From Thermoanaerobaculia bacterium (GTDB lineage: Bacteria > Acidobacteriota > Thermoanaerobaculia > UBA5066), in contig JBBRRY010000017.1 in assembly GCA_038245905.1 (NCBI GenBank), positions 1 to 64,000 on the forward strand: a stretch of DNA of 64,000 nt, given 5' to 3'. Shown piece after piece: positions 11,598-57,343 of this stretch (position 1 is its first letter; each line of letters begins with the position of its first letter). Below the pieces are notes generated by a model that was not told the origin of the DNA, made no database searches, and saw nothing but the letters and a program-made list of their open reading frames with translations. A program made the position numbers and the translations under genes.

Positions 11598-12083
11598 ATG
11601 ACGATGAAGATCCAGGCCATGCTCGACTGGTCTCCCGAGGAGAAGGCGGCGAAGGCGAAGGAGTGGGCCCAGTCCCTCTTCACGCTCCGTCTCCAGAAGG
11701 CCACGGGACAGCTCGAAAATCCGATGAAGATCAAGGAGCTTCGAAAAGACATCGCTCGCCTCAAGACCGCGCAGCACATGGGCGCCGTCGAGACGGCGGC
11801 GGCGGCGGCTCACGAAGTTGCGCCCCATTCGGAGGGGACCGAAGAGAAGAGCTCTGCGAATGTGAAGAGCGCGGTGGGAACGGCGAAGCACAAGGGCCAC
11901 GCGGTCGCGTCCGGCAAGGGCGCGAAGAAGCGCGCTGCGGCTGCGAAGGCGACACACAAGAAGGCGGCCGGCGCCCCTGCGAAGGCTCATTCACCTTCTA
12001 AGAAATCTTCATCTCCGAAAGGCAAGCCCGCTGCTGCCTCGAAGAGCAAGTCCGCCCCCGCGAAGAAAAGCAAAAAGAAGTAG
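11598..12083 (+). CDS. rpmC: 50S ribosomal protein L29 with about 100-aa Lys/Ala-rich tail
   Basis: [31 protein letters not shown]; operon position. Confidence 0.95.
11841..12010. repeat. Dispersed motif, inverted pair in rpmC
   Basis: Degenerate reverse copy GAAGAGAAGAGCTCTGCGAATGTGAAGAG (11841-11869); forward TCACCTTCTAAGAAATCTTC (11991-12010). Confidence 0.65.
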
Positions 12084-12099
12084 TTCGTAACAGGAAGCA

Positions 12100-12522
12100 G
12101 TGAGCACGATCATGAGCAGCACCCCGAATCCCCAGCCGACGCCGGCGGCCGGCGCGTCCGCGGCCGACCAGCCGCGGCGCACCCGCAAGATCGGGATCGT
12201 CGTCTCGAACAAGATGGAGAAGACGGTCGTCGTCGAGGTTTCGCGCACCGTCAAGCACGAGCGCTACGGCCGCTACCAGAAGAAGTCCGCGCGCTTCCTG
12301 GCGGACGACCGTGTTCTCAAGGCGCTGCCCGGCGACACGGTTCAGATCGAGGAGACGCGTCCGCTGTCGGCCCGCAAGCGCTGGCGGGTGATCACGATCG
12401 TGACGAGGGGCCGCCAGGCGGTTTCCGACACGGCCGACGTTCCGGGCAGTGCGAAGAAGATCGCGCCGAAGTCGGTCCCCGATAAGAAGCTGGCGGGTAA
12501 GCCGGCGAAGAGGCAGTCATGA
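12100..12522 (+). CDS. rpsQ: 30S ribosomal protein S17 with terminal extensions
   Basis: [25 protein letters not shown]; the start may be 12112. Confidence 0.97.
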
Positions 12523-12893
12523 TCCAGATGGGGACGATTCTCGAAGTCGCCGACAACTCGGGTGCCCGCCGGCTCTTCTGCATCAAGGTGCAGGGCGGGT
12601 CGACCGGCGACTACGGCCGCATCGGCGACGTCATCACCTGCTCGGTGAAGGAGTCGAATCCCGACGCGCCGGACACGGTCAAGAAGGGCAAGGTCGTCAA
12701 AGCCGTCATCGTGCGCACGGTTCGCGAGCAGCGGCGCCGCGACGGCAGCTACATCAAGTTCGACACGAACGCCGCCGTCCTCGTCAACGCCGAAAAAGAG
12801 CCGATCGGAACCCGTGTGTTCGGGCCGGTCGCTCGTGAGCTCCGCGAGAAGAAATTCATGAAGATCATCTCGCTGGCTCCGGAAGTCATCTGA
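12519..12893 (+). CDS. rplN: 50S ribosomal protein L14
   Basis: [27 protein letters not shown]. Confidence 0.99.
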
Positions 12894-12894
12894 C

Positions 12895-13260: not shown

Positions 13261-13267
13261 GGAGAGC

Positions 13268-13813: not shown

Positions 13814-13832
13814 CAAGTCAAGGAGCGCAGGC

Positions 13833-14018: not shown

Positions 14019-14028
14019 GGAGGGGACG

Positions 14029-20763: not shown

Positions 20764-20793
20764 GGCGCCCCTCTTACCTTCTAAGAATTCTTC
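20764..20793 (+). repeat. Dispersed motif, intergenic near-consensus copy
   Basis: GGCGCCCCTCTTACCTTCTAAGAATTCTTC directly after the rpsK stop. Confidence 0.75.
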
Positions 20794-20886
20794 GGAATTC
20801 TTCGTCCGTAAACCGAGCTCTCGATTCCGGGCCGGGAAGAAGGACGCAATGAAATGACGGAATCGGACGAGAGGTCGTGATTTCCC

Positions 20887-23194: not shown

Positions 23195-23228
23195 GTAGAC
23201 AGGAAAGATAGAGAAGAGACTCGGATAC

Positions 23229-23254
23229 GGATTTTCTTAAAAGGTTAAGAGGGG
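23229..23254 (-). repeat. Dispersed motif, intergenic reverse copy
   Basis: Reverse complement CCCCTCTTAACCTTTTAAGAAAATCC, abutting the terminator. Confidence 0.7.
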
Positions 23255-23278
23255 CCCCGGTTCGCCGGGGCCTTTTTT
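23253..23278 (+). terminator. Rho-independent terminator of the alpha operon
   Basis: GGCCCCGG-TTCG-CCGGGGCC followed by TTTTTT. Confidence 0.9.
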
Positions 23279-23292
23279 CATGAGGGGGGCTT

Positions 23293-23685
23293 CTACCCGA
23301 GCGCTTTCTCGATCTCCTGTATGAGGACCTTCGTCGAGAAGGGTTTCGTGATGTAGCTCGACGCCCCGAGCCGGAGTCCGAGGTCGCGCTCCGACGGCAG
23401 CGTGCGCGCCGTCAGCATCACGATCGGCAGACGGGACGTGGCCGGGTTTTCCTTCAGGATGCGGCAGACGTCGAAGCCCGTGAGGCCGGGCGTGAGGGAC
23501 ACGTCGAGGAGCACGAGGTCGGGCGCTTCCTCGCGCACCATCCGGAGGGCCTCTTCGCCGCCGGTCGCCTCCACAGGCAGGAGTCCCGTCAGGCGGAGCT
23601 TGAAGGAGAGGATCTTCAGGATCGTCGGTTCGTCGTCCACGACCAGGATCTTTCGGCCCGCAAGGCCCGGGGGAAGGCTGCTCAT
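23293..23685 (-). CDS. Single-domain response regulator
   Basis: ILVVDDE, DLVLLD, MLTA, KPF. Confidence 0.93.
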   Translation of the reverse strand: MSSLPPGLAGRKILVVDDEPTILKILSFKLRLTGLLPVEATGGEEALRMVREEAPDLVLLDVSLTPGLTGFDVCRILKENPATSRLPIVMLTARTLPSERDLGLRLGASSYITKPFSTKVLIQEIEKALG

Positions 23686-27993: not shown

Positions 27994-29475
27994 GTGACTC
28001 TTCGCCTTTACAACACCATGAGCCGCTCGCTCGAGGAGTTTCGTCCCGTCTACCCGGGAAAGATCGGCCTCTACACATGCGGACCCACCGTCTACAACCG
28101 GGTGCACATCGGAAACCTCAGGACATTCGTCTGGGAAGACGTGATGTGCCGCGTCTTTCGCGCCCTCGGCTACGAGACGACCCAGGTGATGAACCTCACG
28201 GACATCGACGACAAGACGATCCGGGGCGCGTTGGCCGCCGGGCTGCCGCTGCGCGCGTTCACGGACCTTCACATCGCGACGTTCTTCGAGGACCTGAAGA
28301 CGCTCGGCGTCGAGCCGGCGGCGCTCTATCCGCGCGCCACGGAGCACATCCCCGAGATGGTCACGATCGTCCAGAAGCTCGCCGCCCGTGGGCACACGTA
28401 CGAGAGCGACGGATCGGTCTGGTTCCGGATCTCGACGTTCCCGGGCTACGGAAGTCTCTCTAAGATCGACCTCACGGCCGTGAAGCGCGGCGCGCGCGTG
28501 GCCGACGACGAGTACGAGAAGGAAGATGTGCGCGACTTCGCGGTATGGAAGGGAGCGAAGGAGGGCGAGCCCGAGTCCGCGACGTGGGCCACGGCGCTTG
28601 GCCGCGGGCGGCCCGGCTGGCACCTCGAGTGCAGCGCCATGGCGATGAAGTACCTCGGCGAAACGCTCGACATCCACACGGGCGCCGTCGACAACATCTT
28701 CCCGCATCACGAGAACGAGATCGCGCAGAGCGAAGGCGCGACCGGGAAACCGTTCGTCCATTACTGGCTCCACGCCGAGCACCTCCTCGTGGACGGCGAG
28801 AAGATGTCGAAGAGCAAGGGGAACTTCTACACGCTTCCCGACCTCCTCGAGAGGGGCTTCTCTCCGCGCGCGATCCGCTACCTCCTCATCTCGGTCCCGT
28901 ATCGGATGAAGCTCAACTTCACCTTCGACGGCCTGAAGGCCGCGACCTCCGCGGTCGAGCGGCTGGAGTCGCTCGACCTGCGGCTCAGGGAAAGAGAGAA
29001 AGAGAAGAACAGTTCTTTGAAAGGGGAAGAGGGGGGGAGAGAGGGATTCGAGGGGCGACTGGCGGAGGCGCGGCGTGCGGTCTTTGCCGCCCTCGAGGAC
29101 GACCTCAACACGGCCGGCGCTCTCGGGGCGCTGTTCTCGTTCGTCAAGGCGACCAACGTCGATCTCGAGGCGGGCCATCTGTCGGCCTCCGACGCAACCG
29201 CGGCGCGCGGTCTTCTCCATGAAGTCGCCGGGAACGTCTTCGGAGTCATTGAAAAGACCGCAGGCGACGATGCGCCCTCTTCACCTTCTCAGAAATCTTC
29301 ATCCGAATCCCCCGAATCCGATGATGCGTGGATCCTGGAGCGCATCGAGGCCCGAAAGGGGGCTAGAAAGGCCCGGGATTTCAAGGCCGCCGACGCGATC
29401 CGCGACGAGCTCCTGGGCAAGGGAGTCATCCTCGAAGACACGCCCCAGGGCGTTCGCTGGAAGAGGAAGCCTTGA
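27994..29475 (+). CDS. cysS: Cysteine--tRNA ligase
   Basis: LYNT, YTCGPTVY, HIGN, GRPGWHLECSAM, KMSKS. Confidence 0.98.
   Translation: MTLRLYNTMSRSLEEFRPVYPGKIGLYTCGPTVYNRVHIGNLRTFVWEDVMCRVFRALGYETTQVMNLTDIDDKTIRGALAAGLPLRAFTDLHIATFFEDLKTLGVEPAALYPRATEHIPEMVTIVQKLAARGHTYESDGSVWFRISTFPGYGSLSKIDLTAVKRGARVADDEYEKEDVRDFAVWKGAKEGEPESATWATALGRGRPGWHLECSAMAMKYLGETLDIHTGAVDNIFPHHENEIAQSEGATGKPFVHYWLHAEHLLVDGEKMSKSKGNFYTLPDLLERGFSPRAIRYLLISVPYRMKLNFTFDGLKAATSAVERLESLDLRLREREKEKNSSLKGEEGGREGFEGRLAEARRAVFAALEDDLNTAGALGALFSFVKATNVDLEAGHLSASDATAARGLLHEVAGNVFGVIEKTAGDDAPSSPSQKSSSESPESDDAWILERIEARKGARKARDFKAADAIRDELLGKGVILEDTPQGVRWKRKP
29003..29300. repeat. Dispersed motif, inverted pair in cysS
   Basis: Reverse AGAAGAACAGTTCTTTGAAAGGGGAAGAGGGG (29003-29034); forward CCCTCTTCACCTTCTCAGAAATCTTC (29275-29300). 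Confidence 0.7.
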
Positions 29476-29622: not shown

Positions 29623-29653
29623 AACCCCTCCGGATCGGAGGGGTTTTCGTTTT
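29623..29653 (+). terminator. Attenuator terminator hairpin
   Basis: AACCCCTCCG-GAT-CGGAGGGGTT followed by TTCGTTTT; upstream CGGAGG (29589-29594) and GGGTT (29600-29604) can pair with its 5' arm. Confidence 0.85.
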
Positions 29654-31214
29654 GGTCCTCACCGCGGAGAAAACACTTCTCGTCGCGTCCCTCGCACCGG
29701 CTTCTAACGCCGAGGCTCTGGGGGGGCGCGCGGCTCTCGCCGACCTGCCTCCGTCGACGGCTGTCGAGCTGCGCCTGGATGCGATGACCGAGGCGCCTGC
29801 GTTCGGCGCGCTGCGCGCGTGCTTCGAAGGCAGAACGCTCATCGCAACCGTTCGATCCAAAGCCGAGGGCGGCGGGTTCCGGGGGAGCGAGGAGGAAGAG
29901 CGGGATTTCCTAGAAGGTGCCCTCTCTGCGGGCTTCGATCTCGCAGACGTTGAATTTCGCCGCGACCTTGGTACTCGCTTCGCCGGAATACCTCCTTCTA
30001 AGAAGATTTCTTCTCTCCACGACCCCGAAGGGGTACCAGCCGACCTCGACAGCGTCGTCTCGAGGATGCTCGCTTCCCCCTCGCGCTTCGTGAAAGTCGC
30101 GGCGACGGCAAACGATTCCGGCGACGCCCGCCGCCTTCTCGAGCTTCAGGCCGCGAACCCAGGGGGGCGCCTCACCGTATTCGGCATGGGCGAGGCCGGG
30201 ATCGCCACGCGCGTCCTCTCGCCCTATCTCGGCGCGGCGCTCGCGTACGGGGCGCTCGTCCCCGGGCGCGCCACGGCACCCGGCCAGCTTCTTGCGCGCG
30301 ACCTCAACGAGATCTACGGCGTCGGCTGCGCGCGGAGCGTCTCGCGGCTCTTCGGGATCCTGGGCGGCGTCGTCTCGCACTCCCTCTCTCCCGCTCTCCA
30401 CAACGCGAATTTCGAGGCTCTCGAAGAGGACGCGCTCTACGTCCCGTTTGCGATGCGGATGCTCGGGAGGGAGCTCGAGCCCCTCGTCGCCTCCCTCGAC
30501 GCGCTCGGCCTTCCTCTCGGGGGCGTCTCGGTGACGATCCCGTTCAAGGAAGAGGCCGCGCTCCTTTCGGGCGCGGCCGAGGGCGGCGAGAGGGCGGTCA
30601 ACACGCTCCTGAGGTCGAGCGCCCCGGGCCTGCCGCTCCAGTGGCGCGCGGAAAACACCGACCGTGCGGCATTCGAGGCCGTGATTGAAGATGCTTCCGA
30701 GAGAGGGAGAACCGAGACGAGCGCGAATGCGCGGGTGGCGATCGTCCTCGGGGCTGGTGGTACGGCACGGGTTGCCGTGGATGTTCTCCGAAAAAGGGGA
30801 TTCGGAGTCTTTCTGGTGAACCGAGGCGAGGAGCGTGGCGAGGCGCTTGCGGCTGCCACGGGCGCCCATTACCTTTCTAATAAATCCTCGGCGCCGTGGC
30901 CCGAGGCTGGAGTCATCGTCAACGCGACGGCCCTCGGGCTTCTCCCGGGGGATCCTCTTCCCTGCGAGCAAAATATTCTCCGCCCCGGGATGCTCGTGAT
31001 CGACGCGCCGTATCGCGCCGGCGGAACAGAGCTCGTCCGGGCGGCGCGCGCAGCGGGCGCGCGCGTCGTAGACGGCCAGACACTGCTCCTGCTTCAGGCC
31101 GCGGGCCAGGCAACGCTCTTCACCGGGCGGCAGACGAGCCCGCGGGATCTGCTCTCGCGTCTCGCGCCGCGCCTTCGCTCCCTGTTTTCGTCCTTCGAGG
31201 AGTTTTCTCCTTGA
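29652..31214 (+). CDS. aroDE: Fused type I 3-dehydroquinate dehydratase / shikimate dehydrogenase
   Basis: VELRLD, IATVRSKAEGG, SLH, APGQ (AroD); HSLSPALHN, SVTIPFK, AVNT, NTD, GAGGTA (AroE). Start uncertain. Confidence 0.9.
   Translation: MVLTAEKTLLVASLAPASNAEALGGRAALADLPPSTAVELRLDAMTEAPAFGALRACFEGRTLIATVRSKAEGGGFRGSEEEERDFLEGALSAGFDLADVEFRRDLGTRFAGIPPSKKISSLHDPEGVPADLDSVVSRMLASPSRFVKVAATANDSGDARRLLELQAANPGGRLTVFGMGEAGIATRVLSPYLGAALAYGALVPGRATAPGQLLARDLNEIYGVGCARSVSRLFGILGGVVSHSLSPALHNANFEALEEDALYVPFAMRMLGRELEPLVASLDALGLPLGGVSVTIPFKEEAALLSGAAEGGERAVNTLLRSSAPGLPLQWRAENTDRAAFEAVIEDASERGRTETSANARVAIVLGAGGTARVAVDVLRKRGFGVFLVNRGEERGEALAAATGAHYLSNKSSAPWPEAGVIVNATALGLLPGDPLPCEQNILRPGMLVIDAPYRAGGTELVRAARAAGARVVDGQTLLLLQAAGQATLFTGRQTSPRDLLSRLAPRLRSLFSSFEEFSP
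29902..30018. repeat. Dispersed motif, inverted pair in the aroD domain
   Basis: Reverse GGGATTTCCTAGAAGGTG (29902-29919); forward CCTCCTTCTAAGAAGATTTCTTCTCTCC (29991-30018). Confidence 0.7.
30779..30889. repeat. Dispersed motif, pair in the aroE domain
   Basis: Degenerate reverse GGATGTTCTCCGAAAAAGGGGA (30779-30800); forward GGCGCCCATTACCTTTCTAATAAATCCTC (30861-30889). Confidence 0.6.
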
Positions 31215-32842: not shown

Positions 32843-34149
32843 TGAAGATCGTCGACGCGGATACGCTTGCGGGCAAGAAGGAGCTGGAGCGGTTGCTAAA
32901 GAGCCGCCGGGGAGCCGCTCCTGACTTCGCGACGCTGAAGCAGGTCCTGCCGATCGTGGAGGATGTTCTGCGAAGAGGGGAGCCTGCGCTCCGGAAATAC
33001 GTGAAGTGCTTCGACCCGTTGCGCGGCGCCCCTTCTTACCCTTCTAAGAAGCTCTTGATCACTCCCCGACGTGAGGAGTCTTCTCGGGTGGATCCGGCGT
33101 TTCAGGCGGCGTTTGTCTTCGCCCGCAAGCGCATCGAGGCTTATCACCGCAAGCAGCTCTCGTCCGTCTCGCCGGGTTTCTCCTTCAAGGACTCTCTCGG
33201 CGTCTCCTTCGTGGAGAGGCCCACGCCGTTCGATTCGGTGGGCGTCTATGTGCCCGGGGGCCGCGCCTTCTATCCGTCCTCGCTTCTCATGGGGGTCGTG
33301 CCCGCGCGCGTCGCGGGCGTCAGGCGAGTCGTCGTCGCGACGCCGCGCGGGGCGTGGGCGTCGAGCCCCGAGCTCCGGTGGGCGGCGGCCGAGCTGGGAG
33401 TCGACGAGGTGCTCCTCGCGGGAGGGGCCCACGGTATCGCCGGCCTCGTGTCCGTCGCGGGCGTCGCGAAGATCGTCGGCCCCGGGAACCGGTTCGTCGC
33501 GGCGGCGAAGCACCTCGTCTCGGGCCTCGTGGCGGTGGACATGCCGGCAGGGCCTTCGGAAGTCGCAATCCTCGCGTCGGCCGATGCGGACCCGGCGCTC
33601 GTGGCGGCGGATCTTCTCGCGCAAGCGGAGCACGATCCCGACGCAAAGTGCTTGCTGTTTACGAGCTCGAGAAGGCTGGCGGACGCCGTTCGATGCGCGG
33701 CGCTCTCGCAGATGGATGCCTTCGAAGAGGATTCTTCTTTGATGGTGATGAGAGCGGCCTTGCGCCGCGGTGGGCGGATCTTTCTATTCAAAGAAATCTC
33801 CCGCGCCGCGTCGGCCTGCGCTGCCGTGTTCGCGGAGCACGTTCAGGTCATGGGCCGGTCTGTCGAGCGCTCGGCGGGTTCTCTCTTTCCCGCTGCCGGA
33901 ACCTTGTTCATTGGCCCGTCGACGCCGACCGCGCTCGGGGACTACGTCCTCGGCCCGAATCACGTACTGCCCACAGGCGGTGCCGCGCGCAGCTTCTCGG
34001 GTCTCTCGGTGCGCGACTTCCTGCGCTGGGGGCGATCGGTCTCGGCCCCCGTGAAGGCGGCCCGCCGCCTCGCGCCCGCGGCAGCGGTCCTGGCGCGATT
34101 CGAAGGTCTCGTCGCCCACGCGAGCGCGCTCGACCGGAGAGTCCGGTGA
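32839..34149 (+). CDS. hisD: Histidinol dehydrogenase
   Basis: GVYVPGG, GPGNRFV, DMPAGPSE, LAQAEH, GPNHVLPT. Confidence 0.96.
   Translation: MMKIVDADTLAGKKELERLLKSRRGAAPDFATLKQVLPIVEDVLRRGEPALRKYVKCFDPLRGAPSYPSKKLLITPRREESSRVDPAFQAAFVFARKRIEAYHRKQLSSVSPGFSFKDSLGVSFVERPTPFDSVGVYVPGGRAFYPSSLLMGVVPARVAGVRRVVVATPRGAWASSPELRWAAAELGVDEVLLAGGAHGIAGLVSVAGVAKIVGPGNRFVAAAKHLVSGLVAVDMPAGPSEVAILASADADPALVAADLLAQAEHDPDAKCLLFTSSRRLADAVRCAALSQMDAFEEDSSLMVMRAALRRGGRIFLFKEISRAASACAAVFAEHVQVMGRSVERSAGSLFPAAGTLFIGPSTPTALGDYVLGPNHVLPTGGAARSFSGLSVRDFLRWGRSVSAPVKAARRLAPAAAVLARFEGLVAHASALDRRVR
32958..33056. repeat. Dispersed motif, pair in the 5' part of hisD
   Basis: Degenerate reverse GGAGGATGTTCTGCGAAGAGGGGA (32958-32981); forward GGCGCCCCTTCTTACCCTTCTAAGAAGCTCTT (33025-33056). 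Confidence 0.65.
33724..33800. repeat. Dispersed motif, pair in the 3' part of hisD
   Basis: Reverse GAAGAGGATTCTTCTTTGATGGTGATGAGAG (33724-33754); forward TTTCTATTCAAAGAAATCTC (33781-33800). Confidence 0.55.
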
Positions 34150-36432: not shown

Positions 36433-37214
36433 ACGGCGGCCGGCTTGCGCTGTGGCCCGCGATCGACCTCATGGGCGGCCGCGTGGTCCGGCTGCTCAGG
36501 GGCAAGCGCGAGGCCGTGACGTTCTACGACGAGCAGCCTTCCGAGGCCGCGAGGCGATTTGCGGCGGAAGGCGCCGACGGCATCCACGTGGTGGATCTCG
36601 ATGCGGCATTCGGAACGGGGGACAACGAAAGCAATCGGAAAGAGATTGAAGAAATACTTTCTGTTTCGGAGGCTTCCGGGGTGGCAGTGCAAGTCGGGGG
36701 AGGGCTGCGCGCCACCGCGGCCGTCGAAGATTTCTTAGAAGGGGTGAGTACCGCTAGGGCAGTTGTCGGCAGCCTGCCGTTCCTCGACCGCCCCGCGTTC
36801 ACACACCTTCTAAGAAAATCTTCCTCTTCCGTCTCGGCCCGCATCGTGGTGGCCCTCGATTGCAAGGATGGCCGTCCGACCGTCCGCGGCTGGACCGAGG
36901 ACGCGGGAGCGGGTGACGCCGTGTCCGTGGCACGCGAGATGTGGGGCCTCGGCGTCCGGGCGCTCCTCGTCACGGACGTCGCGTGCGACGGGGCCATGAC
37001 GGGCCCGAATCTCGAACTCCTCGCCGGAGTGCGCGCCGTCTTTCCGGGCGAGATCCTGGCGTCCGGCGGCATGCGAGGAGAACGGGATCTCGATCCGGTC
37101 GACCGCACGCTCGCGGGTGGGCCCCGCGGCGCCATCTTCGGCCGCGCATTGCACGGCGGAGTCACCACCATGGCGAAGCTCAAGGCGGCGCGCGACCTCG
37201 GGAGGCCTTCATGA
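36429..37214 (+). CDS. hisA: ProFAR isomerase
   Basis: [40 protein letters not shown]. Confidence 0.95.
36726..36823. repeat. Dispersed motif, best inverted pair (hisA)
   Basis: GAAGATTTCTTAGAAGG (36726-36742), 63 nt, CCTTCTAAGAAAATCTTC (36806-36823); complementary apart from one extra A. Confidence 0.8.
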
Positions 37215-38644: not shown

Positions 38645-40017
38645 GGAATCTCCACCGCCTCGTCGTGGTCGAGAGGCCGGCGGACCTTACGACGCCCGTT
38701 GCGCTCATGAAGGGCCTTCTTGCCGGCGAGGGGCCGTGCTTCCTTCTCGAATCGGTCGAGGGGGGCGACCGCGTGGCGCGGTGGTCCTTCCTCGGGGCGT
38801 CGCCCTCGGGAGAGATCTCCGGCCAGGATACGGATCCGTTCGCCGCCCTCCGCGCGCTGCCTCGCGGCGAAATGGCGGCAGGCGGGGACGACCTCCCTCC
38901 CTTCACGGGCGGAGCCGTCGGTTACGCGGGCTACGACGCCGTGAGGCGCCTCGAACGCCTCCCCGAAACGAACCCGGACCCGATCGGGCTGCCGGACGCG
39001 TGGTTCGGGATCTTCGACGCGGTCATCGCGTTCGACCATGTGCGGCACCGCCTTCTCTTCGTGACGCATGCCGAAGAGGGCCGGGAGGAAGAGGCGCGCG
39101 CTCGTCTGCACGCGCTCGAGGCGCGCACCCTCACCCGAGGTGGTGAAACGCGCACAGAGACTCTCTCTTCTCTTACCTTCAAAGAATCTTCTCCTCGTTC
39201 CTCCTACATCGCGGCGGTCGAGCGCGCGAAGGAGCACATTCGGGCGGGCGACGTGTTTCAGGTCGTCCTCTCGCGCCGCTGGTCCGCACCCTTCGACGGC
39301 GACGCCTTCGCTGTCTACCGCGCGCTCCGGTCCATCAGCCCGTCGCCGTACCAGTACTTCCTGAGGACGCCGCACGGCGCGATCTTCGGAGCCTCGCCCG
39401 AGCGACTCGTGCGCGTCGCGGCGGCCCTCGGCGGCGCGGCCGTGGAGACGATTCCTCTCGCCGGCACCCGCGCGCGCGGCGCGACGCGCGAAGAGGACCT
39501 CGCCCTCGAGAAGGAGCTCCTCGCGGACCCGAAGGAGCGCGCGGAGCACGTGATGCTCGTGGATCTCGGGAGAAACGACCTCGGCCGAGTCGCGAAGGCC
39601 GGGAGCGTGCGCGTGGAAGATTTTTTCCGCGTCGAGCGCTATTCCCACGTGATGCACATCGCCTCGCGCGTGACCGGCGTTCTCGCCGAGGGGAAGGACG
39701 CCGTCGACGCTCTCGTGGCGACGTTTCCGGCCGGGACGCTTACGGGAGCGCCGAAAATACGCGCGATGGAGATCATCGAGGACCTCGAGCCGGTGCGGCG
39801 CGGCGCCTACGGCGGCACCGTGGGCTACCTCGACTTCGCCGGAAACCTCGACGTGGCTATCGCGATCCGCACGGCGGTCGTCGCGAACGGCATTCTCCAC
39901 GTGCAGGCCGGCGCCGGCATCGTCGCCGACTCCGACCCCGAGGCCGAAGCGACCGAGTGCGAGAACAAGGCCCGTGCTCTCATGGGCGCCGTTGCGAAGG
40001 CGGGGACGTACCGATGA
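38641..40017 (+). CDS. trpE: Anthranilate synthase component I
   Basis: [49 protein letters not shown]. Confidence 0.95.
39161..39191 (+). repeat. Dispersed motif, single copy in trpE
   Basis: CTCTCTCTTCTCTTACCTTCAAAGAATCTTC. Confidence 0.7.
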
Positions 40018-41620: not shown

Positions 41621-41635
41621 GAGGAGTAAGAGGGA

Positions 41636-41885
41636 GAGAAATTTCTTAGAAAGGGTAAGAGGAAGAGGGGATGGGCGGATCGATTCTTGGGGAGATTCTC
41701 GCCGCCAAGCGGCGCCGGATCGCCCGTGGGGAGTTCACGGCCGAGACGGGCGCGCGCGCACGCACCAGCGGGGGTAGGGGCGCGCAGCCCGCGGCGCGGC
41801 CCGACGGCGCGCGCTTCGCCGCGGCCCTTAGGTCTCACCCTTCTCTTTCTTCCTCCTCCATTTCTAAGCAAGTCTTTCCTCTTCC
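41636..41885. repeat. Dispersed motif, pair spanning the trpD-trpCF spacer and trpC
   Basis: Reverse GAGAAATTTCTTAGAAAGGGTAAGAGG (41636-41662); forward CCTCCTCCATTTCTAAGCAAGTCTTTCCTCTTCC (41852-41885). Confidence 0.7.
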
Positions 41886-43182
41886 TCTCCTTCTTTCCGA
41901 GATCAAGCACCGCTCCCCGAGCGCGGGCCTGATTCTTCCCGACGCGTCCTCGCGAATCGAGTCCCTCGCGCGCGCCTATCGGCGCGGCGGGGCGTCGGTC
42001 CTCTCCGTCGTCGTCGAGCAGGACTTCTTCGGCGGCGATCCGTCATGGCTGCCCCGCGCGAAGGCTGCGTCCGGGCTGCCCGTCCTGATGAAGGACTTCA
42101 TCGTGGACGAGGCACAGCTGGACTTCGCCGCGGCCCTCGGCGCCGACGCGGTGCTCCTCCTCGTGTCTGCCCTCGAGGACGAGGGGCTTTCGCGCCTCCA
42201 TGCGGCCGCGCGCTCCCGCGGTCTCGCGGTCCTCGTGGAGGCGCACGACGAGGCCGAGACCCGGCGGGCGCTGGATGTGGGCGCGGAGGTTGTCGGCGTG
42301 AACGCGCGGGATCTCGAGACGTTCGCCGTCGACCTGCCTGGAATGGCCCGCCTCGGTTCGCTCCTGCCGACGTCAGTCGTCCGCGTGGCCGAGAGCGGCA
42401 TCAGGACCCGAGCGGACATCGAGGCTCTCTCCATGGCGGGCTATGGGGCTTTTCTCGTCGGTGAGACGCTCCTCCGCGCGTCCGACCCGGCGCGCGCCCT
42501 GCGCGAGCTCAAGGGCGAGAACGCGACCGAGATCAAGATCTGCGGCGTCACCCGGGAAGAAGACGTCGACGCGTGCCTGGAGTTCGGCGTGGACTGGATC
42601 GGGCTCATCTTCGCGGAGCGCTCGCCGCGGAAATTGACGCCAGAGAGAGGAAGAATTCTTCGAATGAGGGCAATGGGGGAGCGCGGTGCGCGACGAGAGG
42701 AAGGCGGGGCTGCGGGCGCCGTCAAGGGTGTGGTGGTTGTCTTCGACGGGGGCGACGAGGAAGAGATTCTTCGAGTCATTGAACTCGTTCGTCCGGACGT
42801 CGTTCAAATGCCAGATCCCCCTCTTACCCTTCAAAAGAAATTCTCTTCTTTCTCTTTTCTTTCGCTGTGGAACACCCTTCGTGTCGGGAGAGATGACTTG
42901 TCGAGTGCGAATGAGCGGCGCGGCGCCGCTCTCCACTTCGATACGTCGGTGGCCGGGGCGAGCGGTGGCACCGGCAAGACATTCGACTGGACTCTTCTGG
43001 ACGCCGTCGATCGATCGCGCCCGCTGATTCTCGCGGGCGGCCTGAATCCCGGAAACGTGGCGGACGCCGTCAGAAGAGTGAAGCCGGACGTCGTGGACGT
43101 GGCGTCGGGAGTGGAGTCCGCGCCCGGAATCAAGGATCGGGCGAAAATCGCCGCATTCGTGAGGGAGGTCCGTGGTGCCTGA
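41671..43182 (+). CDS. trpCF: Fused indole-3-glycerol-phosphate synthase / PRA isomerase
   Basis: [26 protein letters not shown] (TrpC); [27 protein letters not shown] (TrpF). Confidence 0.95.
42650..42848. repeat. Dispersed motif cluster in the trpF domain
   Basis: Reverse GAAGAATTCTTCGAATGAGGG (42650-42670) and GAAGAGATTCTTCGAG (42760-42775); forward CCCCCTCTTACCCTTCAAAAGAAATTCTCTTC (42817-42848). Confidence 0.7.
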
Positions 43183-44395
43183 CGCGACTGGAGAGGCATT
43201 TCGCCCGCCCGAGGCCGACGCCGAGGGGCGCTTTGGAGCGTTCGGCGGGCGCTTCGTCCCGGAGACGCTGATGGCGCCCCTCGAGGAGCTGACGCGCGCC
43301 TACAAGGACGCCCGCCGCGATCCCGCCTTCCGGCGCGAGCTGGACGGACTCCTGAAGACCTACGCCGGCCGGCCGACACCGCTCACGTATGCGAAGCGCC
43401 TCTCCGAGAATCTGGGCGGCGCGAGGATCTTCCTGAAGCGCGAAGACCTCCTCCACACGGGAGCGCACAAGATCAACAACGCGCTCGGACAGGCGCTTCT
43501 CACGAAGAGGATGGGCAAGGCGCGCGTCATCGCGGAGACCGGAGCCGGACAACATGGCGTGGCCACGGCGACGGCGTGCGCCCTCCTCGGCCTCGAGTGC
43601 GTCGTTTACATGGGAGCCGTCGACGTGGAGCGGCAGGCTCTGAATGTCTACCGGATGAAGCTGCTCGGCGCGACGGTCGTGCCCGTGACGGCCGGCTCGC
43701 GCACGCTCAAGGACGCGATCAACGAGGCCATGCGCGACTGGGTCGCCACGACCGCGACGACGCACTACATCCTGGGTTCGGTTCTGGGGCCGCATCCGTT
43801 CCCGACCATGGTGCGCGATTTCCAATCCGTGATCGGGCGGGAAGCCCTCGCGCAGAGCCGCAAGGTCCTCGGAAAGCTGCCCGACCTCCTCGTGGCATGC
43901 GTGGGCGGAGGCTCGAACGCGATCGGCCTCTTCCGGGAATTCCTGCCGTTCCAGGACGTCGAGATGGTCGGCGTCGAGGCCGGAGGGCGCAGCCTCGAGC
44001 CCGGCGAGCACGCAGCCCGTTTCGGGCCGGGTTCCGTCGGCGTCCTCCATGGCACGCGCACCTTGATCCTTCAGGACGCCGACGGGCAGGTGCTACCGAC
44101 TCACTCCGTGTCCGCGGGCCTCGACTATCCGGCCGTGGGGCCCGAGCATGCGCGTCTTGCCGAGCTCGGACGGACCCAATATGTCTCGGTCCCGGACGAC
44201 GCCGCGCTCGCGGCGTTCCACCGCCTCGCGGAGACCGAAGGGATCATTCCGGCCCTCGAGACAGCGCACGCCGTTGCCTGGGCCATCGAAGAGGCGCGCC
44301 GCCGGCCGAAGAGCGCCACGCTCCTCGTGAATCTCTCCGGCCGTGGTGACAAAGACGTCGTCCAGGTCGCGCGGCGCGAGGGCGTCGAGCTGTGA
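43175..44395 (+). CDS. trpB: Tryptophan synthase beta chain
   Basis: [40 protein letters not shown]. Confidence 0.98.
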
Positions 44396-54443: not shown

Positions 54444-54524
54444 CACGAGCTCTCCATGCACCCCGCATCAGTAATCAGTTTACTGCGATTCTCGGACTCC
54501 TAGACCCGCAGTAGACTGGACGCG

Positions 54525-55811
54525 ATGGACTATCGCCTTCTCCTGAAGAACGTCGAGAAGACCCTCGAAGCCATCGAGGGCGGCGACGACGTGCTCGTGA
54601 CGATCGTGAGCGTCGGCGAGGCGATCGTCCGGAACTTCCAGAGGGAGCTCGGGATCCTGGGCGGTCGGCTCTACGTGCGCCGGGAGAACCAGTACGTCCT
54701 CGAGCGGGGATTCGGCCGCTCGCGACGCGTCCCGACGGGCATCTCCGTTTCCGCCGAGTACGGCCCCATCCGCCGCGCGGAGGAAGACGGGATGGCGCTT
54801 GCCGATCTCGACGATCCGTCCATCGACAAGGCGTTCGAGAAGAGCCTCGGCGTCTCGCGCTTCGCCGCCGTCTCGTTCGGTGAGGAGCGCTATCTCCTCT
54901 CCTTCGACGTCCACCCGAGGGCGCGCGAAGAGGACCTCCTCCTCGCGCTCGGCATCATCCGGACCGTGGTCGACTCGAAGGTGCGCACGGAGCGCCTCGA
55001 GGGCCTCCTGCAGGACGCCCGGCGTATCCAGCAGTCGATTCTCCCGCGCGCGATTCCCCAGGTGGGCGACTTCGAGCTCTTCGGACTGTCGGTTCCGGCC
55101 GAGGCGGTCGGCGGGGACTTCTACGATTTCATTCCGCTCGGCGACCTGAGCTTCGGCGCGGCCATCGCGGACGCGTCCGGCCACGGACTTCTCGCGGCGC
55201 TGCTCGTGCGCGACATCTACGTCGGTCTCCGGATGGGGATCGGAAACGACTTCAAGATCGCCCGCACGATCGAGCGGCTGAACCGCATCCTGAACAAGAG
55301 CCGACTCACGACGAAGTTCGTCTCCCTCTTCTACGGCGAGTTCGAGACGAATGGCGACATCGTTTACGTGAACGCGGGGCACCCGTCACCCCTCCATCTG
55401 CATGCCGTGACGGGCTCGTTCAGCGAGCTTGCCTCGACGGGAATGGTCCTCGGCCCCGCGCCCGACGCCGTTTACAGCCGGCGGGCGGCTCACATGGAGC
55501 CGGGCGACCTCGTGCTTCTCTATACGGACGGAGTCGTCGAGGCCCACGATTCGAAGGGTCGCGAGTTCGGGATGTCCCGGCTTAAGCGACTGCTCATCGA
55601 GGCGAGGCGCGAATCGGCGCGCGAGGTCGTGCACCGGGTCGTCAATGCGGCGCGCTCGTGGTCGCACGGAGCCCCCGTGGAGGACGACATGACGGCCGTC
55701 GCGATCCGGCGCGTGCCGCAGCGGGCCGGCGACCGTCCGCACCGGTCGGGCGAGCATCCACGCGTCAAGCCCGAGACGACGCCTCACGGAACCAGGCCGC
55801 GGTCCGCCTGA
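54525..55811 (+). CDS. SpoIIE/RsbU-type PP2C phosphatase
   Basis: IQQSILP, VGGDFYD, DASGHG, NAGHP, YTDG, DDMT. Confidence 0.93.
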   Translation: MDYRLLLKNVEKTLEAIEGGDDVLVTIVSVGEAIVRNFQRELGILGGRLYVRRENQYVLERGFGRSRRVPTGISVSAEYGPIRRAEEDGMALADLDDPSIDKAFEKSLGVSRFAAVSFGEERYLLSFDVHPRAREEDLLLALGIIRTVVDSKVRTERLEGLLQDARRIQQSILPRAIPQVGDFELFGLSVPAEAVGGDFYDFIPLGDLSFGAAIADASGHGLLAALLVRDIYVGLRMGIGNDFKIARTIERLNRILNKSRLTTKFVSLFYGEFETNGDIVYVNAGHPSPLHLHAVTGSFSELASTGMVLGPAPDAVYSRRAAHMEPGDLVLLYTDGVVEAHDSKGREFGMSRLKRLLIEARRESAREVVHRVVNAARSWSHGAPVEDDMTAVAIRRVPQRAGDRPHRSGEHPRVKPETTPHGTRPRSA

Positions 55812-56709
55812 GACCCTCGGCGAGACGGACGGGCTCCGGCAGGCCGAGGGCGGCCCGCCCTTTCGCGACGTCGAGGACGCTCCGGCGCTGCTCTCCAGGC
55901 TTGGCGGCCTCGTGCGGGGCCTTCGCGGAGGAGCCGCAGGACCGCACGACTTCGTCCCAGAGGGCGTTTACGTTCGTCTCGACGCCGGTCCCGACGTTGT
56001 AAACGCCCGCGAGGCGCTTCGAGGCCGCCGCGCGGTTTGCGGAGACGACGTCCCCGACGTAGACGAAGTCGCGGGAGTTGAGGCCGTCGCCGTAGATGAC
56101 GCAGGGCTTTCCTTGGAGGAGGCGCGCCATCCAGATCCCGACGACGCCGGCCTCGCCCCGCCCGTCCTGGCGCGGGCCGTAGACGTTCGCGTAGCGGAGG
56201 GCCGTCACGAGAAGCGGCGTCCCGTGCGCGAGGCCGAAGAGATACTTCTCGCCCGCGAGCTTCGCGACGCCATAGGGCGACACGGGGTTCGTCGCGTGGC
56301 TCTCGTCGGCGGCGAATCCCTCGGGGTCGCCGTAGATCGCGCCGCCGCTGGAGGCGAAGATGATCTGCGTGACACCTGCCTCGATCGCAGCCTTGGCGAT
56401 GCGGATCGTCCCGAGGACGTTGACCTCCGCGTCGAAGACGGGATCCTCGACCGATTTGCGCACGTCGATCTGCGCGGCATGGTGGACGATCGTGTCGATC
56501 TTCTCGGCTTCGAGGAGAGCCGCGAAATCGAAGTTCCGGATATCGCCTTCGACGAAACGGGCCGGGCCGGGGAGACGCGATGCCTGGCCCGTCGAGAGAT
56601 CGTCGAGGATGACGACCCGCTTGCCTTCGGCCAGGAAGGCGTCGGCGAGATGGGAGCCGATGAAACCGGCTCCGCCGGTGACGAGGACGGAACGCGTCTC
56701 GGGCATCAT
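55765..56709 (-). CDS. NAD-dependent epimerase (UDP-glucose 4-epimerase-like)
   Basis: VTGGAGFIG, YGVAK, NVYGPRQ. Confidence 0.93.
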   Translation of the reverse strand: MMPETRSVLVTGGAGFIGSHLADAFLAEGKRVVILDDLSTGQASRLPGPARFVEGDIRNFDFAALLEAEKIDTIVHHAAQIDVRKSVEDPVFDAEVNVLGTIRIAKAAIEAGVTQIIFASSGGAIYGDPEGFAADESHATNPVSPYGVAKLAGEKYLFGLAHGTPLLVTALRYANVYGPRQDGRGEAGVVGIWMARLLQGKPCVIYGDGLNSRDFVYVGDVVSANRAAASKRLAGVYNVGTGVETNVNALWDEVVRSCGSSAKAPHEAAKPGEQRRSVLDVAKGRAALGLPEPVRLAEGLRRTAAWFREASSRA

Positions 56710-56725
56710 GGGTGTGGAGGATAGC

Positions 56726-57343
56726 GTGCCCTCTCGCCGACCGCTCCCCGCCACCTTTTTCCGCCGCGACACCGAGGTCATCGCGCGTGATCTCCTGGGC
56801 TGCCGGCTCACGCGGCGGCTGCCCGACGGCACCACGCGATCCGTGATCCTGGTCGAAACGGAGGCCTATCTCGGCGTGAAGGACCGCGCGGCGCACACGT
56901 GGAACGGCCGTCGTACCGCCCGCGTCGAGCCGATGTGGGGGGCGGGCGGCCACGCGTACGTCTATTTCGTCTACGGGATGCACTTCTGCATGAACGTCGT
57001 AGCGGGCGAAGAAGGGATTCCGGAGGCGGTCTTGCTGAGAGCGGGGATTCCGGAGGGAGAAGAGAAGGTTTCTTTGAAGGTGAATAGGGGAGGGGAGGCG
57101 TCCGGGCCCGCGAAGCTGTGCGCCTATCTGGGCGTGACCACCGCGCTGTCCGGCGCCTCGCTCTCCGGCCCCGAGCTGGTCCTCTCGCGCGGGCCGCGTC
57201 GGCGGTTCTCGATCGTCGCCGGGCCGCGCGTGGGCGTGGACTACGCGGGGGAGGCCGCGGCGTGGCCGCTGCGCTTCGCGATGGCCGGGTGCAAGGCCGT
57301 GACGAAGCCCAAGGGGCTCCGTCCTTTCCGTGTCATCGCATGA
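56726..57343 (+). CDS. mpg: DNA-3-methyladenine glycosylase (Mpg/AAG)
   Basis: VETEAY, YVYFVYGMHFCMN, AVLLRA, GPAKL, PRVGV. Confidence 0.93.
   Translation: MPSRRPLPATFFRRDTEVIARDLLGCRLTRRLPDGTTRSVILVETEAYLGVKDRAAHTWNGRRTARVEPMWGAGGHAYVYFVYGMHFCMNVVAGEEGIPEAVLLRAGIPEGEEKVSLKVNRGGEASGPAKLCAYLGVTTALSGASLSGPELVLSRGPRRRFSIVAGPRVGVDYAGEAAAWPLRFAMAGCKAVTKPKGLRPFRVIA
57064..57090 (-). repeat. Dispersed motif, single copy in mpg
   Basis: Reverse complement CCCCTATTCACCTTCAAAGAAACCTTC. Confidence 0.7.

Follow-up and report, generated by a model that had tools for sequence, protein, structure and literature searches.

Divergently paired copies of a lineage-restricted DNA motif in a genus of Thermoanaerobaculia

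Here, we analysed a dispersed DNA motif in a 64,000-nucleotide stretch from an uncultured Thermoanaerobaculia bacterium (the window) and traced it across the 3.8-Mb genome and related genomes. Each copy, or arm, is an AT-rich word of about 30 bp in a GC-rich genome, in which a pyrimidine tract is followed by CnTTCnAAGAAA and a second pyrimidine tract, and the functional unit is not the single dispersed site but two divergent arms that enclose native DNA. The arms are conserved at orthologous positions in one genus and part of its sister genus, under constraint at the level of the nucleic acid, and their density changes between the replication origin and the terminus. Tentatively, we read the units as paired, lineage-specific sites for a putative DNA-binding factor that would take part in organising the chromosome. 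The motif that the initial annotation had noticed in the window is real and stronger than first reported; the divergent pairs, the genome-wide extent and the restriction to a genus and part of its sister genus had been overlooked.

Abundance and divergent pairing

A 30-nt weight matrix, trained on the same genome that it scores, finds 840 merged copies at a threshold of at least 12 bits and 444 at 24 bits or more; 78% of the copies lie within genes, according to our own rough gene calls. The position table bears out a strong core of about 12 bp flanked on both sides by weaker pyrimidine tracts, with conservation declining gradually at either edge of the information-bearing stretch of about 30 bp and without a sharp terminus. 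The core, TTCTWAGAA, is nearly palindromic, the palindrome of a single arm being limited to 4+1+4. Exact CCTTCTAAGAAA occurs 76 times, against a single occurrence of the back-to-front control, and a literal 26-mer with up to 3 mismatches is found once in the window, where shuffles predict 0.00. Among 12 synonymous-codon shuffles, which preserve the proteins, in-gene copies of at least 16 bits averaged 109.9 (maximum 121) versus 524 in the real genome, and those of at least 24 bits averaged 22.4 (maximum 28) versus 335. The copies are balanced in orientation relative to genes (340 on the gene strand, 322 on the opposite one), use all reading frames and avoid stops. The tracts also occur in independent assemblies, those of 28 further genomes of the genus and Logan contigs from 4 runs in 3 studies, which speaks against an assembly artefact; nor do they match an element already described, to judge from an Rfam search of the window (0 matches) and from literature searches, which returned no description of the motif or of a matching element.

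Genome-wide, 227 pairs diverge at distances of 25–320 nt, compared with 16 in the opposite arrangement. Neighbours in the (−,+) order lie within 300 nt of each other in 224 of 248 cases (median 119), those in the (+,−) order in 16 of 224 (median 3470). For 339 of 437 strong arms (78%) a partner stands on the expected side, for 15 (3%) on the other side, and about 20% have no detectable partner. Within genes, 174 divergent pairs contrast with 13.6 in the synonymous-codon shuffles. The spacing has its mode at 80–120 bp and the units measure about 90–380 bp; a 10.5-bp helical periodicity was looked for in the centre-to-centre spacing and is absent. The units themselves are approximately Poisson-spaced (coefficient of variation 1.25 versus 1.11 simulated) and, therefore, form no regular domain lattice.

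Arms in the window

The matrix recovered, at 12 bits or more, 19 of the 22 copies that had first been listed, namely, all 11 forward and 8 of 11 reverse ones. The 3 reverse copies that fall below the threshold (starting at 29902, 30779 and 32958) each lie about 90–100 nt upstream of a strong forward copy, at the place where one would look for a degenerate partner. Pfam agrees with the host genes first assigned (rpmC/L29, cysS, aroD-aroE, hisD, hisA, trpE, trpC-trpF and mpg), and 3 copies, with centres at 20783, 23238 and 41647, are intergenic, as had been stated, by our own rough gene calls.

The Lys/Ala-rich C-terminal tail of rpmC carries a left arm at 11843..11872 (−, 20.1 bits), purine-rich on the + strand, and, 144 nt away centre to centre, a right arm at 11984..12013 (+, 35.2 bits). 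In cysS, the left arm at 29004..29033 (−, 27.9 bits) lies between the catalytic and DALR domains, and its partner at 29274..29303 (+, 33.0 bits), 273 nt distant, past the DALR domain. The aroD-aroE region contains two right arms, at 29984..30013 (+, 24.1 bits) and 30863..30892 (+, 24.5 bits), preceded, respectively, by a weak or degenerate left arm at 29902..29936 (−, 6.0 bits at best) that scores as an arm in 5 related genomes and by a weak one at 30779..30813 (−, 9.3 bits) that does so in 9. A third weak left arm, at the start of hisD (32958..32992, −, 9.4 bits), accompanies a right arm at 33030..33059 (+, 31.3 bits) found in 16 syntenic sources; farther along hisD, arms at 33726..33755 (−, 23.6 bits) and 33775..33804 (+, 26.3 bits), 52 nt apart, are present in 23 and 22 sources, respectively.

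In hisA, the left arm at 36723..36752 (−, 26.4 bits), found in 25 syntenic sources, codes for EDFLEG with a rare TTA, and the right arm 76 nt away, at 36796..36825 (+, 33.5 bits), codes for LLRKSS ahead of a poly-Ser tract, the length of which differs among species. The trpE arm at 39166..39195 (+, 32.8 bits), present in 26 sources, has no partner here, but six related genomes show a scoring left partner around 39090-39120. The intergenic left arm between trpD and trpC (41634..41663, −, 37.9 bits), with a purine run that overlaps the trpC ribosome-binding region, is paired across 219 nt with an arm in an N-terminal loop of trpC (41850..41879, +, 23.8 bits), and a further pair in trpC-trpF occupies 42647..42676 (−, 24.7 bits) and 42818..42847 (+, 32.6 bits), 174 nt apart. 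Three further arms are unpaired: at 20767..20796 (+, 28.9 bits), between rpsK (S11) and rpsD (S4); at 57061..57090 (−, 37.2 bits), in mpg, the methylpurine-DNA glycosylase gene; and at 23225..23254 (−, 33.1 bits), between the convergent rplQ and a response-regulator gene. A GC-rich hairpin adjoins the last of these.

Origin by substitution and lineage distribution

The HisA spacer aligns to motif-less homologues without any change in length and codes for conserved core residues; more generally, the spacers are native host sequence that differs from unit to unit and adds no length. Thus, the units are not insertions. New arms come from substitution at sites that are already motif-like, and copies lie in loops of low conservation and in low-complexity stretches. 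Arms occupy orthologous positions in 19–26 of 30 syntenic sources and do not vary by insertion. Third-codon-position identity is 0.838 in arm cores (n = 36) versus 0.634 outside arms (n = 3775) and, among 20 relatives, HisA keeps the rare TTA in 12 and CTT CTA AGA, with the likewise rare CTA and AGA, in 15. Together with the codon shuffles, these observations uphold the initial proposal that conservation acts on the nucleic acid itself and prevails over codon bias.

The motif is present in all 28 other genomes of the genus and in 7 of 8 genomes of the sister genus, and in none of 26 from eight other genera. The exceptional sister-genus genome, G040, has approximately background density, shows no arm at 6 of the 8 orthologous positions aligned and retains just weak, GC-shifted remnants in hisA. 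The suggestion that gene families might co-occur with the motif led to none among those examined: genomes with and without the motif both have about two copies of ParB_N, and ComEC, HHH_3 and secretin are found in 5 of 5 genomes tested.

Chromosomal position and competing interpretations

The bias between origin and terminus that the initial annotation had proposed to look for is present. Arm density is 4–10 times lower around the replication origin and higher near the terminus; the position of these landmarks rests on dnaA in two genomes and on GC skew in just one. Contigs of equal codon usage differ up to 10-fold in density; all 5 low-density contigs tested (C2, C3, C10, C18 and C20) map, in two nearly closed relatives, to the region that bears dnaA, and both high-density ones tested (C4 and C14) map 0.4–0.8 Mb from the GC-skew terminus. 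Along contig C1 of genome G011, exact 13-mers number 2, 5, 5, 13, 10, 7, 8 and 2 per 0.5 Mb, the skew switching at about 2.08 Mb. Given that units are scarce around the origin and dense in the terminus-centred part, we tentatively place their function in the organisation of the chromosome or nucleoid; for the same reason, of the roles first considered, chromosome organisation is favoured over DNA uptake. Alternatively, the gradient could arise because genes near the origin are more strongly constrained or because recombination is uneven along the chromosome.

Under our preferred interpretation, each arm would be an asymmetric site, most likely recognised by a sequence-specific DNA-binding protein, and two divergent arms 25–320 bp apart would make a two-fold symmetric unit that a dimeric or oligomeric factor could bind cooperatively, bending or looping the spacer. 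The approximately 230 units per genome would have been made by base substitution over native coding and intergenic DNA, where the proteins tolerate it, and selection acting on the nucleotide sequence would have kept them in all sampled species of the genus. Their role might be, for example, to mark or compact the non-origin domain rather than to control individual genes. A rigid looped complex might impose helical periodicity, so that its absence counts against this reading, which is also weakened by the partnerless strong arms, about 20% of the total, and by the missing domain lattice.

Among known organisational sites, matS/MatP, NBS/Noc and SBS/SlmA sites lie in genes, are confined to or excluded from particular domains and mark the domain for a nucleoid protein, and the origin-proximal domain is likewise depleted of the motif described here. 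However, matS, NBS and SBS are single palindromes of 13–16 bp, present in tens per genome and with known cognate proteins, whereas here there are some 230 paired asymmetric units, and the ParB_N paralogues do not track them. The abundance of AIMS increases towards the replication terminus (PMC5993296), and our motif resembles AIMS and KOPS-type polar octamers in this rise and in a strand bias near the terminus of G011, where the purine form of exact copies is found 26 times on the leading and 7 times on the lagging strand and the bias flips at the skew switch. Unlike AIMS, which are 8-mers defined by leading-strand bias, the arms pooled show none (140/271), as a consequence of their two-fold symmetric pairing. 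The octamers with the strongest skew in the lineage are G-rich, such as GAAGGGGA and the GGGGGAG type, and not the arm core.

Molecular drive akin to that of uptake sequences or HIP1 is an unlikely alternative. A biased process would favour motif-bearing alleles, for instance by taking up, packaging or transferring such DNA preferentially or through repair or gene conversion with a sequence bias, and copies would build up by point mutation where proteins tolerate them, continually renewed and without a function for the cell. The likeness to USS of Pasteurellaceae and DUS of Neisseriaceae is extensive: hundreds of lineage-specific copies, mostly coding, with a core of about 10–12 bp and weaker flanks, in both orientations and all frames, avoiding stops, placed at poorly conserved residues and in low-complexity stretches, arising by substitution, and spread within a genus with decay in one sister species. 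The same placement rules are given for USS, which are mostly coding, occur in all frames and both orientations and at poorly conserved residues, and arise by substitution (PMC2817400). ComEC, ComEA-like and secretin genes are present as well, but competence genes are equally found in the motif-less G040 and G066. Unlike USS and DUS, 78% of the strong copies stand in divergent pairs 25–320 bp apart, the informative part extends over about 30 bp, and density thins 4–10-fold near the origin in conserved core DNA of normal codon usage, whereas uptake bias alone predicts an even spread. Obligate divergent pairing is not known as a property of USS, DUS or HIP1. Cyanobacterial HIP1 (GCGATCGC) is periodically spaced. 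It is described as hyper-abundant, conserved within and between ORFs and kept by selection, with peptide, RNA and gene-regulation roles unsupported and a role in chromosome or nucleoid structure proposed (PMC5861425), and our G·U and codon-shuffle tests point the same way. Yet HIP1, which is linked to methyltransferases, is a perfect palindrome of 8 bp (PMC4390886), unlike the 30-nt asymmetric, obligately paired, approximately Poisson-spaced and origin-depleted word found here.

We consider an RNA element decidedly improbable. Transcription of either strand of a divergent pair would yield a purine arm on the 5′ side and, complementary to it, a pyrimidine arm on the 3′ side, and the resulting long-range stem could serve RNase III processing, mRNA stabilisation or Shine-Dalgarno-like/anti-Shine-Dalgarno-like interplay. 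The purine-then-pyrimidine order is fixed in every transcript, as a hairpin of defined sequence would give; short intergenic units can fold as hairpins; of 32 fully intergenic units, just 6 are flanked by divergent genes; the pyrimidine arm resembles, in two blocks, the 16S 3′ end and the spacer junction; and the overlap at trpC involves a purine arm. The arms can indeed pair, at a mean of −28.7 kcal/mol within pairs versus −18.1 kcal/mol with a shuffled partner, but pairing between arms of different pairs is similar (−27.5 kcal/mol), no pair class is clearly different (weakest p = 0.04, for genic pairs) and flank identity is 8.45 of 21 within pairs versus 8.43 between pairs. Thus, within-pair covariation is absent, which points to reading of the arms by consensus and not by arm-to-arm pairing. 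At the mRNA level, G·U-type mismatches are not in excess over A·C-type ones on the gene strand (504 versus 490). The Rfam result and the strong arms that lack a partner also count against this reading, and the density gradient along the replication axis is not readily derived from RNA function.

A tie to mobile elements, whether as transposase or recombinase sites, as relics (MITEs, REPINs, transposon ends) or as targets of a domesticated enzyme, is very improbable. The fixed inverted orientation, unit lengths within the MITE range, hundreds of copies and lineage-specific distribution recall such elements, and REP/REPIN with RAYT and BIMEs also comprise hundreds of short lineage-specific repeats, often as inverted doublets of about 100 bp. 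REPs, however, are extragenic, each forms a hairpin, and doublets, which have a fixed spacer and are associated with a RAYT gene, are copied as units, whereas here most copies are genic, the arm palindrome is short, and the spacers are native and variable. Y1_Tnp/RAYT is lacking in this genome and occurs in only 4 of the 28 others of the genus, but all 17 genomes examined in a motif-less genus carry it. The gradual fading of the arm edges, the orthology of copies across species and the lack of any longer autonomous copy between arms 0.3–6 kb apart also speak against this origin. Rickettsia palindromic elements, too, reside in housekeeping protein genes with the frame intact, but these are selfish in-frame insertions of 100–150 bp that add a peptide segment, whereas the arms here overwrite native codons.

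Finally, although inverted repeats of common consensus and nearly palindromic core flank short in-gene segments, intragenic invertons, in which a site-specific invertase would flip the inter-arm segment and recode the protein, are hardly credible: the hisA spacer codes for conserved core residues, some centre-to-centre distances are merely 28–50 nt, spacing modulo 3 (86/73/68) shows no frame bias, strand-change joints are absent among the joints listed from contigs of 4 runs, which hide minority forms, and 42.0% of 169 in-gene units are stop-free after in-silico inversion versus 58.8% of length-matched controls from the same genes.

A paired motif constrained at the DNA level

The 3.80-Mb genome of this Thermoanaerobaculia bacterium (113 contigs, 67.8% G+C) carries a dispersed motif of ~30 nt, each copy of which, hereafter an arm, consists of a G-poor pyrimidine tract of ~10–15 nt, the core C-n-TTC-n-AAGAAA and a second pyrimidine tract of ~20 nt. 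With a 30-nt weight matrix built from the genome's own copies, that is, trained on the genome that it scores, we found 840 merged copies of at least 12 bits and 444 of at least 24 bits. The exact 12-mer CCTTCTAAGAAA occurs 76 times, as compared with ~0.05 occurrences expected from base composition arithmetic, and once when the word is read backwards. According to rough gene calls from our own codon-score caller, which cover 92% of the genome, 662 of the 840 copies reside within genes, in all three reading frames and on both strands (340 on the gene strand and 322 on the opposite one); at its variable base, the core has T, A or G, so that an in-frame TAA can be avoided. The initial annotation had proposed that such copies, read in different frames and orientations, are conserved at the level of the nucleic acid, and the codon-shuffled controls support this view. 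Indeed, when synonymous codons were permuted within each gene, leaving the proteins unchanged, and 12 such shuffles were scored with the same matrix, a mean of 109.9 in-gene copies of at least 16 bits was obtained (maximum 121) versus 524 in the real genome, and 22.4 copies of at least 24 bits (maximum 28) versus 335. Furthermore, in a 14-kb syntenic block compared across up to 29 loci of the genus, identity to the window at third codon positions is 0.838 in arm cores (n=36) and 0.774 in whole arms (n=88), as opposed to 0.634 outside the arms (n=3775).

All 22 positions originally listed in the window correspond to recognisable copies of one word; 19 of these reach at least 12 bits, whereas the other three score 6.0–9.4 bits and are located where a partner is expected. 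Pfam likewise bears out the housekeeping nature of the host genes, namely, L29, CysS, AroD-AroE, HisD, HisA, TrpE, TrpC-TrpF and Mpg. An assembly artefact was dismissed given that 28 further genomes of the genus, representing many assemblies, have the motif, as do contigs of four sequencing runs from three studies, one of them possibly the source of this genome. A promoter was rejected as well: sigma-70-like −35/−10 geometry is absent on inspection in both orientations, and copies inside one-directional operons use both strands equally. Among the matches listed in a full-text literature search with the core word, only eukaryotic or unrelated papers appeared; a search for Thermoanaerobaculia with inverted repeat returned no paper, and the papers on Thermoanaerobaculia, repeat and motif, going by their titles and the opening of their abstracts, do not deal with such an element.

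Although the motif itself was correctly recognised in the initial annotation, its divergent pairing was overlooked. When strands are assigned by the pyrimidine form, 224 of the 248 neighbouring copies in (−,+) order lie within 300 nt of each other (median 119), compared with 16 of the 224 in (+,−) order (median 3470), and pair orientation played no part in the training of the matrix. A partner of at least 12 bits is found on the expected side for 78% of the 437 strong, high-scoring arms, and on the other side for 3%. Thus, copies pair divergently, such that a unit reads 5′-purine arm, spacer, pyrimidine arm-3′ on either strand. There are 227 pairs within 320 nt, of which 169 have both arms inside a single gene and 32 lie entirely between genes. 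The spacing of paired arms ranges from 28 to 320 nt (10th–90th percentile, 67–213); helical phasing of 10.5 bp was not detected at periods of 10–11 bp, a 9-nt periodic signal reached p=0.008 with 15 periods tested, and regular spacing of the units along the genome was not seen.

The DNA between the arms is native rather than foreign. The spacer in HisA encodes a conserved stretch of 22 residues that aligns without change in length with HisA of motif-less relatives, and the left arm adds one residue only; in CysS, the pair flanks the DALR domain. New arms originate through substitutions where the sequence was already motif-like, as at window position 31710, where most species have CTTCTCGAA and a clade of three species has CTTCTTAGAAGG; the same clade also gained the partner arm, ~130 nt downstream. 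The pyrimidine flank beside the arms differs in length among species.

The lineage carrying the motif is uncultured and known from metagenome-assembled genomes (MAGs) only, and the nearest HisA relatives of our genome are MAGs labelled Acidobacteriota, class Thermoanaerobaculia. The exact 12-mer is present in all 28 other genomes of the genus (21–210 copies each) and in 7 of the 8 genomes of one sister genus (1–16 copies). None of 26 genomes from eight further genera in the family has it, and a 14-mer is absent from 12 genomes that belong to two other families in the order. Matrix scoring of 400-kb samples from other genera yielded 57 copies in the sister-genus genome G039, paired in the same manner (16 vs 1), 9 copies in G040, of the same sister genus, and 2 in a genome of a third genus. 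In G040, 6 of the 8 aligned orthologous arm positions score below 8 bits, and what is left of the two HisA arms has shifted towards GC and scores 16.2 and 7.2 bits. Across the genus, orthologous sites carry arms in 19–26 of 30 syntenic sources, some gains being clade-specific.

Distribution along the chromosome

Arm density varies up to 10-fold among the large contigs of the genome, with 2.7–11 arms per 100 kb in the low-density contigs C18, C20, C3, C10 and C2, and 27–39 in the high-density contigs C1, C4, C5, C14, C17 (the one containing the window) and C24. Recent horizontal transfer of the motif-poor contigs can be discarded because their codon usage, codon score and GC3 are the same as those of the rest, and because they represent syntenic core DNA, 72–89% identical in two relatives. 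To place contigs, 20-kb pieces were mapped onto G011 and G050, two genomes of the same genus that are nearly closed. Each of the five low-density contigs tested falls either next to dnaA or within ~0.5 Mb of it (0.74–1.36 Mb of G050 contig C2, with dnaA at 0.84 Mb), or else on the G011 contig that bears dnaA and the adjoining start of the large G011 contig; C10, which has no match in G050, is placed by G011 alone. The two high-density contigs tested map to 2.44–2.89 Mb of the large G011 contig, C1, and the window maps to 2.66 Mb, with the sign of the GC skew changing at ~2.08 Mb.

Counts of exact words in the two relatives, on which the densities there are based (12- and 13-mers), follow the same axis, with origin and terminus defined by dnaA in both genomes and by GC skew in G011, so that the origin of G050 is placed by dnaA only. 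In G011, an assembly with a listed contamination of 7%, successive 0.5-Mb segments of C1 contain 2, 5, 5, 13, 10, 7, 8 and 2 exact 13-mers, and the dnaA contig contains 3; G050 has 8 of them in a 1.12-Mb stretch that surrounds dnaA and extends past it, versus 56 in the remaining 2.8 Mb. The terminus-centred 800 kb of G011 harbour 271 arms, or 34 per 100 kb. Taken together, contig mapping, 13-mer counts and terminus density show that the element is scarce in the conserved DNA near the origin and accumulates in the part of the chromosome centred on the terminus. In the same 800 kb, the arms are strand-balanced, with the purine form on the leading strand in 140 of the 271 (p=0.63), and our genome shows no association with replication-strand polarity when GC skew is taken as a proxy.

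Several further observations concern the same axis. Around 2.08 Mb of G011 C1, the exact 12-mers have the pyrimidine form on the lagging strand in 26 cases and on the leading strand in 7 (Fisher p=0.0008), with the preference flipping at the skew switch. Between 1.79 and 2.59 Mb of this contig (loci L151–L190), G-rich octamers are skewed towards the leading strand (GAAGGGGA, 60 vs 19; TGGGGGAG, 26 vs 2), as are several other GGGGGAG-type octamers near the skew switch; these are candidate KOPS/AIMS-like words of the lineage, and there is overlap between GAAGGGGA and a purine-arm variant. One 20-kb piece of C10 matches G011 contig C2 twice, at 36–55 kb (79% identity) and 740–761 kb (75–88%), which reflects either a large duplication or two merged strains. 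Two ParB_N matches are found in 48 of the 63 genomes of the family, including ours; in G011, one is next to dnaA and the second lies ~40 kb from the GC-skew terminus (C1, 2038405–2038674). ParB_N paralogues occur in all genera, with or without the motif.

Possible readers of the arms

We tentatively favour a reading under which the arms are recognised by a trans-acting reader of double-stranded DNA that plays a role at the level of the chromosome. Such a reader is suggested by conservation towards the consensus, the lack of covariation within pairs, neutrality with respect to gene strand, occurrence in coding as well as intergenic DNA, restriction to one lineage with decay in one sister-genus species, and the density gradient along the replication axis, the last of these suggesting that the element acts on the chromosome as a whole and not in the control of single genes. 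The strictly divergent arrangement would make the unit two-fold symmetric, as would suit a dimeric or oligomeric protein; it should be emphasized that we infer the protein as well as its looping of DNA and its role. Among the genes beside the best intergenic units, none stood out as a candidate autoregulated factor. Eukaryotic domain borders are marked by back-to-back pairs of CTCF sites. It is conceivable, albeit improbable, that the divergent pairs serve as bacterial boundary elements, with a lineage-specific protein binding each arm as a polar site. Arranged back to back, two arms would then stop or load a loop-extruding or translocating machine from either side, and the terminus-centred two-thirds of the chromosome would be split into ~230 loops, with the origin domain left free. 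If true, this would amount to a sequence-encoded chromosome-folding code running through housekeeping coding sequences.

The main rival to a chromosome-level reader, namely, a drive like that of uptake sequences or HIP1, would account for the placement of the words within proteins. Alone, however, it explains neither the pairing nor the depletion near the origin, and we regard it as unlikely. Uptake sequences (USS and DUS) are over-represented words that occur equally on both strands and largely in genes, and competent cells prefer DNA that carries them; each copy functions by itself, and core DNA contains them at a roughly even density. The present motif shares with them the strong in-gene excess and the even use of strands (compare Findlay and Redfield, PMC2817400) but differs in that 78% of its strong copies are in divergent pairs and in its 4–10 times lower density near the origin, in conserved DNA. 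Genes for ComEC, an HHH_3 (ComEA-like) protein and secretin occur in genomes with and without the motif alike. HIP1 is a short perfect palindrome that is recognised by cognate methyltransferases. Conservation within and between ORFs across genomes, evident here from third positions and orthologous sites, is a feature in common with HIP1, whereas the word studied here is asymmetric, being palindromic in TTCTWAGAA only. For HIP1, Xu, Lawrence and Durand (PMC5861425) argue for selection, find a gene-level role unsupported and propose a nucleoid function, a position similar to the one reached here.

Chromosomal words offer a second set of comparisons. The matS, NBS and SBS sites are confined to, or excluded from, one domain of the replication axis and have a cognate DNA-binding protein; similarly, the motif is depleted around the dnaA region in our genome, G011 and G050. 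Its abundance rises towards the terminus, as that of AIMS/KOPS does (compare Hendrickson et al., PMC5993296), according to both 13-mers of G011 C1 and contig mapping, but the arms overall show no leading-strand bias, only exact 12-mers being biased. Thus, the element resembles uptake sequences and HIP1 in gene placement and AIMS/KOPS or matS/NBS/SBS in chromosome distribution, and lacks defining features of each of these.

An RNA (or DNA) hairpin formed by the paired arms appears still less probable than drive. The arms can pair through their common consensus, with a mean duplex energy of −28.7 kcal/mol compared with −18.1 for a shuffled partner; nevertheless, the energy is nearly as low between pairs (−27.5), and flank identity over 21 positions is 8.45 within and 8.43 between pairs. 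Values within and between pairs do not differ for intergenic, short or long units, and differ weakly for genic units (p = 0.04); G·U mismatches in the mRNA sense are about as numerous as A·C mismatches (504 vs 490). With no greater likeness or complementarity within pairs than between them and no G·U excess, each arm is constrained to the consensus independently. Unlike in structured RNA elements, there are no compensatory changes that would maintain a stem, and the window has no match in Rfam.

We see little chance that the pairs are relics of a mobile element of the REPIN or MITE type. REP sequences and REPINs are extragenic and associated with a Y1 (RAYT) transposase gene, and their doublets are copied whole, with a characteristic spacer. 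Here, by contrast, most copies are in genes (662 of 840), the spacing is variable, the spacers are native gene sequence, and our genome lacks a match to the Y1 transposase family (PF01797). MITEs and the Rickettsia palindromic element are insertions that add length and have internal sequence common to the copies, whereas the HisA spacer is homologous to motif-less HisA and arms were gained by substitution. An autonomous parent element was not found between arms 0.3–6 kb apart, and three genes flanked by such arm pairs encode, once translated, proteins that look ordinary by eye. PF01797 is found in 4 of the 28 other genomes of the genus, in all 17 genomes of one motif-less genus and in 7 of the 8 sister-genus genomes, a distribution opposite to that of the motif.

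Intragenic invertons are extremely unlikely, given that the inverted state fails to keep frames open (in-silico inversion leaves 42.0% of the 169 in-gene units stop-free vs 58.8% of matched controls); in Logan contigs of four runs, which drop minority forms, no strand change was observed among the joints listed, beyond which there are 17 more. What probability remains is left to other explanations, for example that the purine–pyrimidine tracts matter only for their structure.

To our knowledge, few genome-wide words are kept in bacterial genes against codon preference, namely, uptake sequences, Chi, KOPS/AIMS and HIP1. Each of these opened work on DNA uptake, repair or chromosome segregation. 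The present motif is set apart by its length, its obligate divergent pairs and its avoidance of the origin region, and, if a protein reads it, would represent a new encoding of chromosome-scale information in coding DNA, in an uncultured but widespread group of Acidobacteriota. In practical terms, it provides a sharp marker for binning contigs of the genus.

Host genes and neighbouring sequences

The DNA-level signal reshapes the proteins in which it is embedded, as illustrated by HisA, an enzyme on which EDFLEG, LLRKSS and a variable poly-Ser tract are imposed. The two peptides are encoded by the arms via TTA, CTA and AGA, of which TTA is the rarest and CTA the third-rarest sense codon in our own training set; in related loci, TTA is found in 12 of 20, and CTT CTA AGA in 15 of 20. 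The poly-Ser tract that follows the right arm (window 36796–36860; loci L001–L024) varies from 0 to ~30 residues among relatives, suggesting slippage in the TCT/TCC sequence that flanks the arm. In one related locus, L015, hisA is out of frame between the arms, both arm words still being present; this is probably an assembly indel error at the low-complexity tracts.

In the L29 gene (11598–12083), the Pfam domain spans residues 12–60 and is followed by a C-terminal extension of ~100 residues rich in Lys, Ala and Ser, and it is this tail that contains both arms of one pair. The amino-acid biosynthesis cluster includes four fused genes, encoding AroD-AroE (29652–31214), a HisS-like (HisZ-type) domain joined to HisG (31211–32842), HisF joined to HisI-HisE (37211–38644), and TrpC-TrpF (41671–43182); from 31211 to 44395, most consecutive genes overlap by their stop and start codons. 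Between rplQ and a convergent response-regulator gene (23225–23300), an unpaired arm adjoins a GC-rich hairpin (GGGGCCCCGG..CCGGGGCC) resembling a bidirectional terminator. Finally, the 3′ end of the 16S gene together with the start of the spacer reads GGATCACCTCCTTTCTAAAGGA in three genomes of the genus (loci L077–L079), and the 16S spacer starts with CTAAGGG in loci L075 and L076. GGATCACCTCCTTTCTAAAGGA and the pyrimidine arm TTCACCTTCTAAGAAA have two blocks in common, TCACC and TTCTAA, a likeness that may be a coincidence of pyrimidine-rich words.
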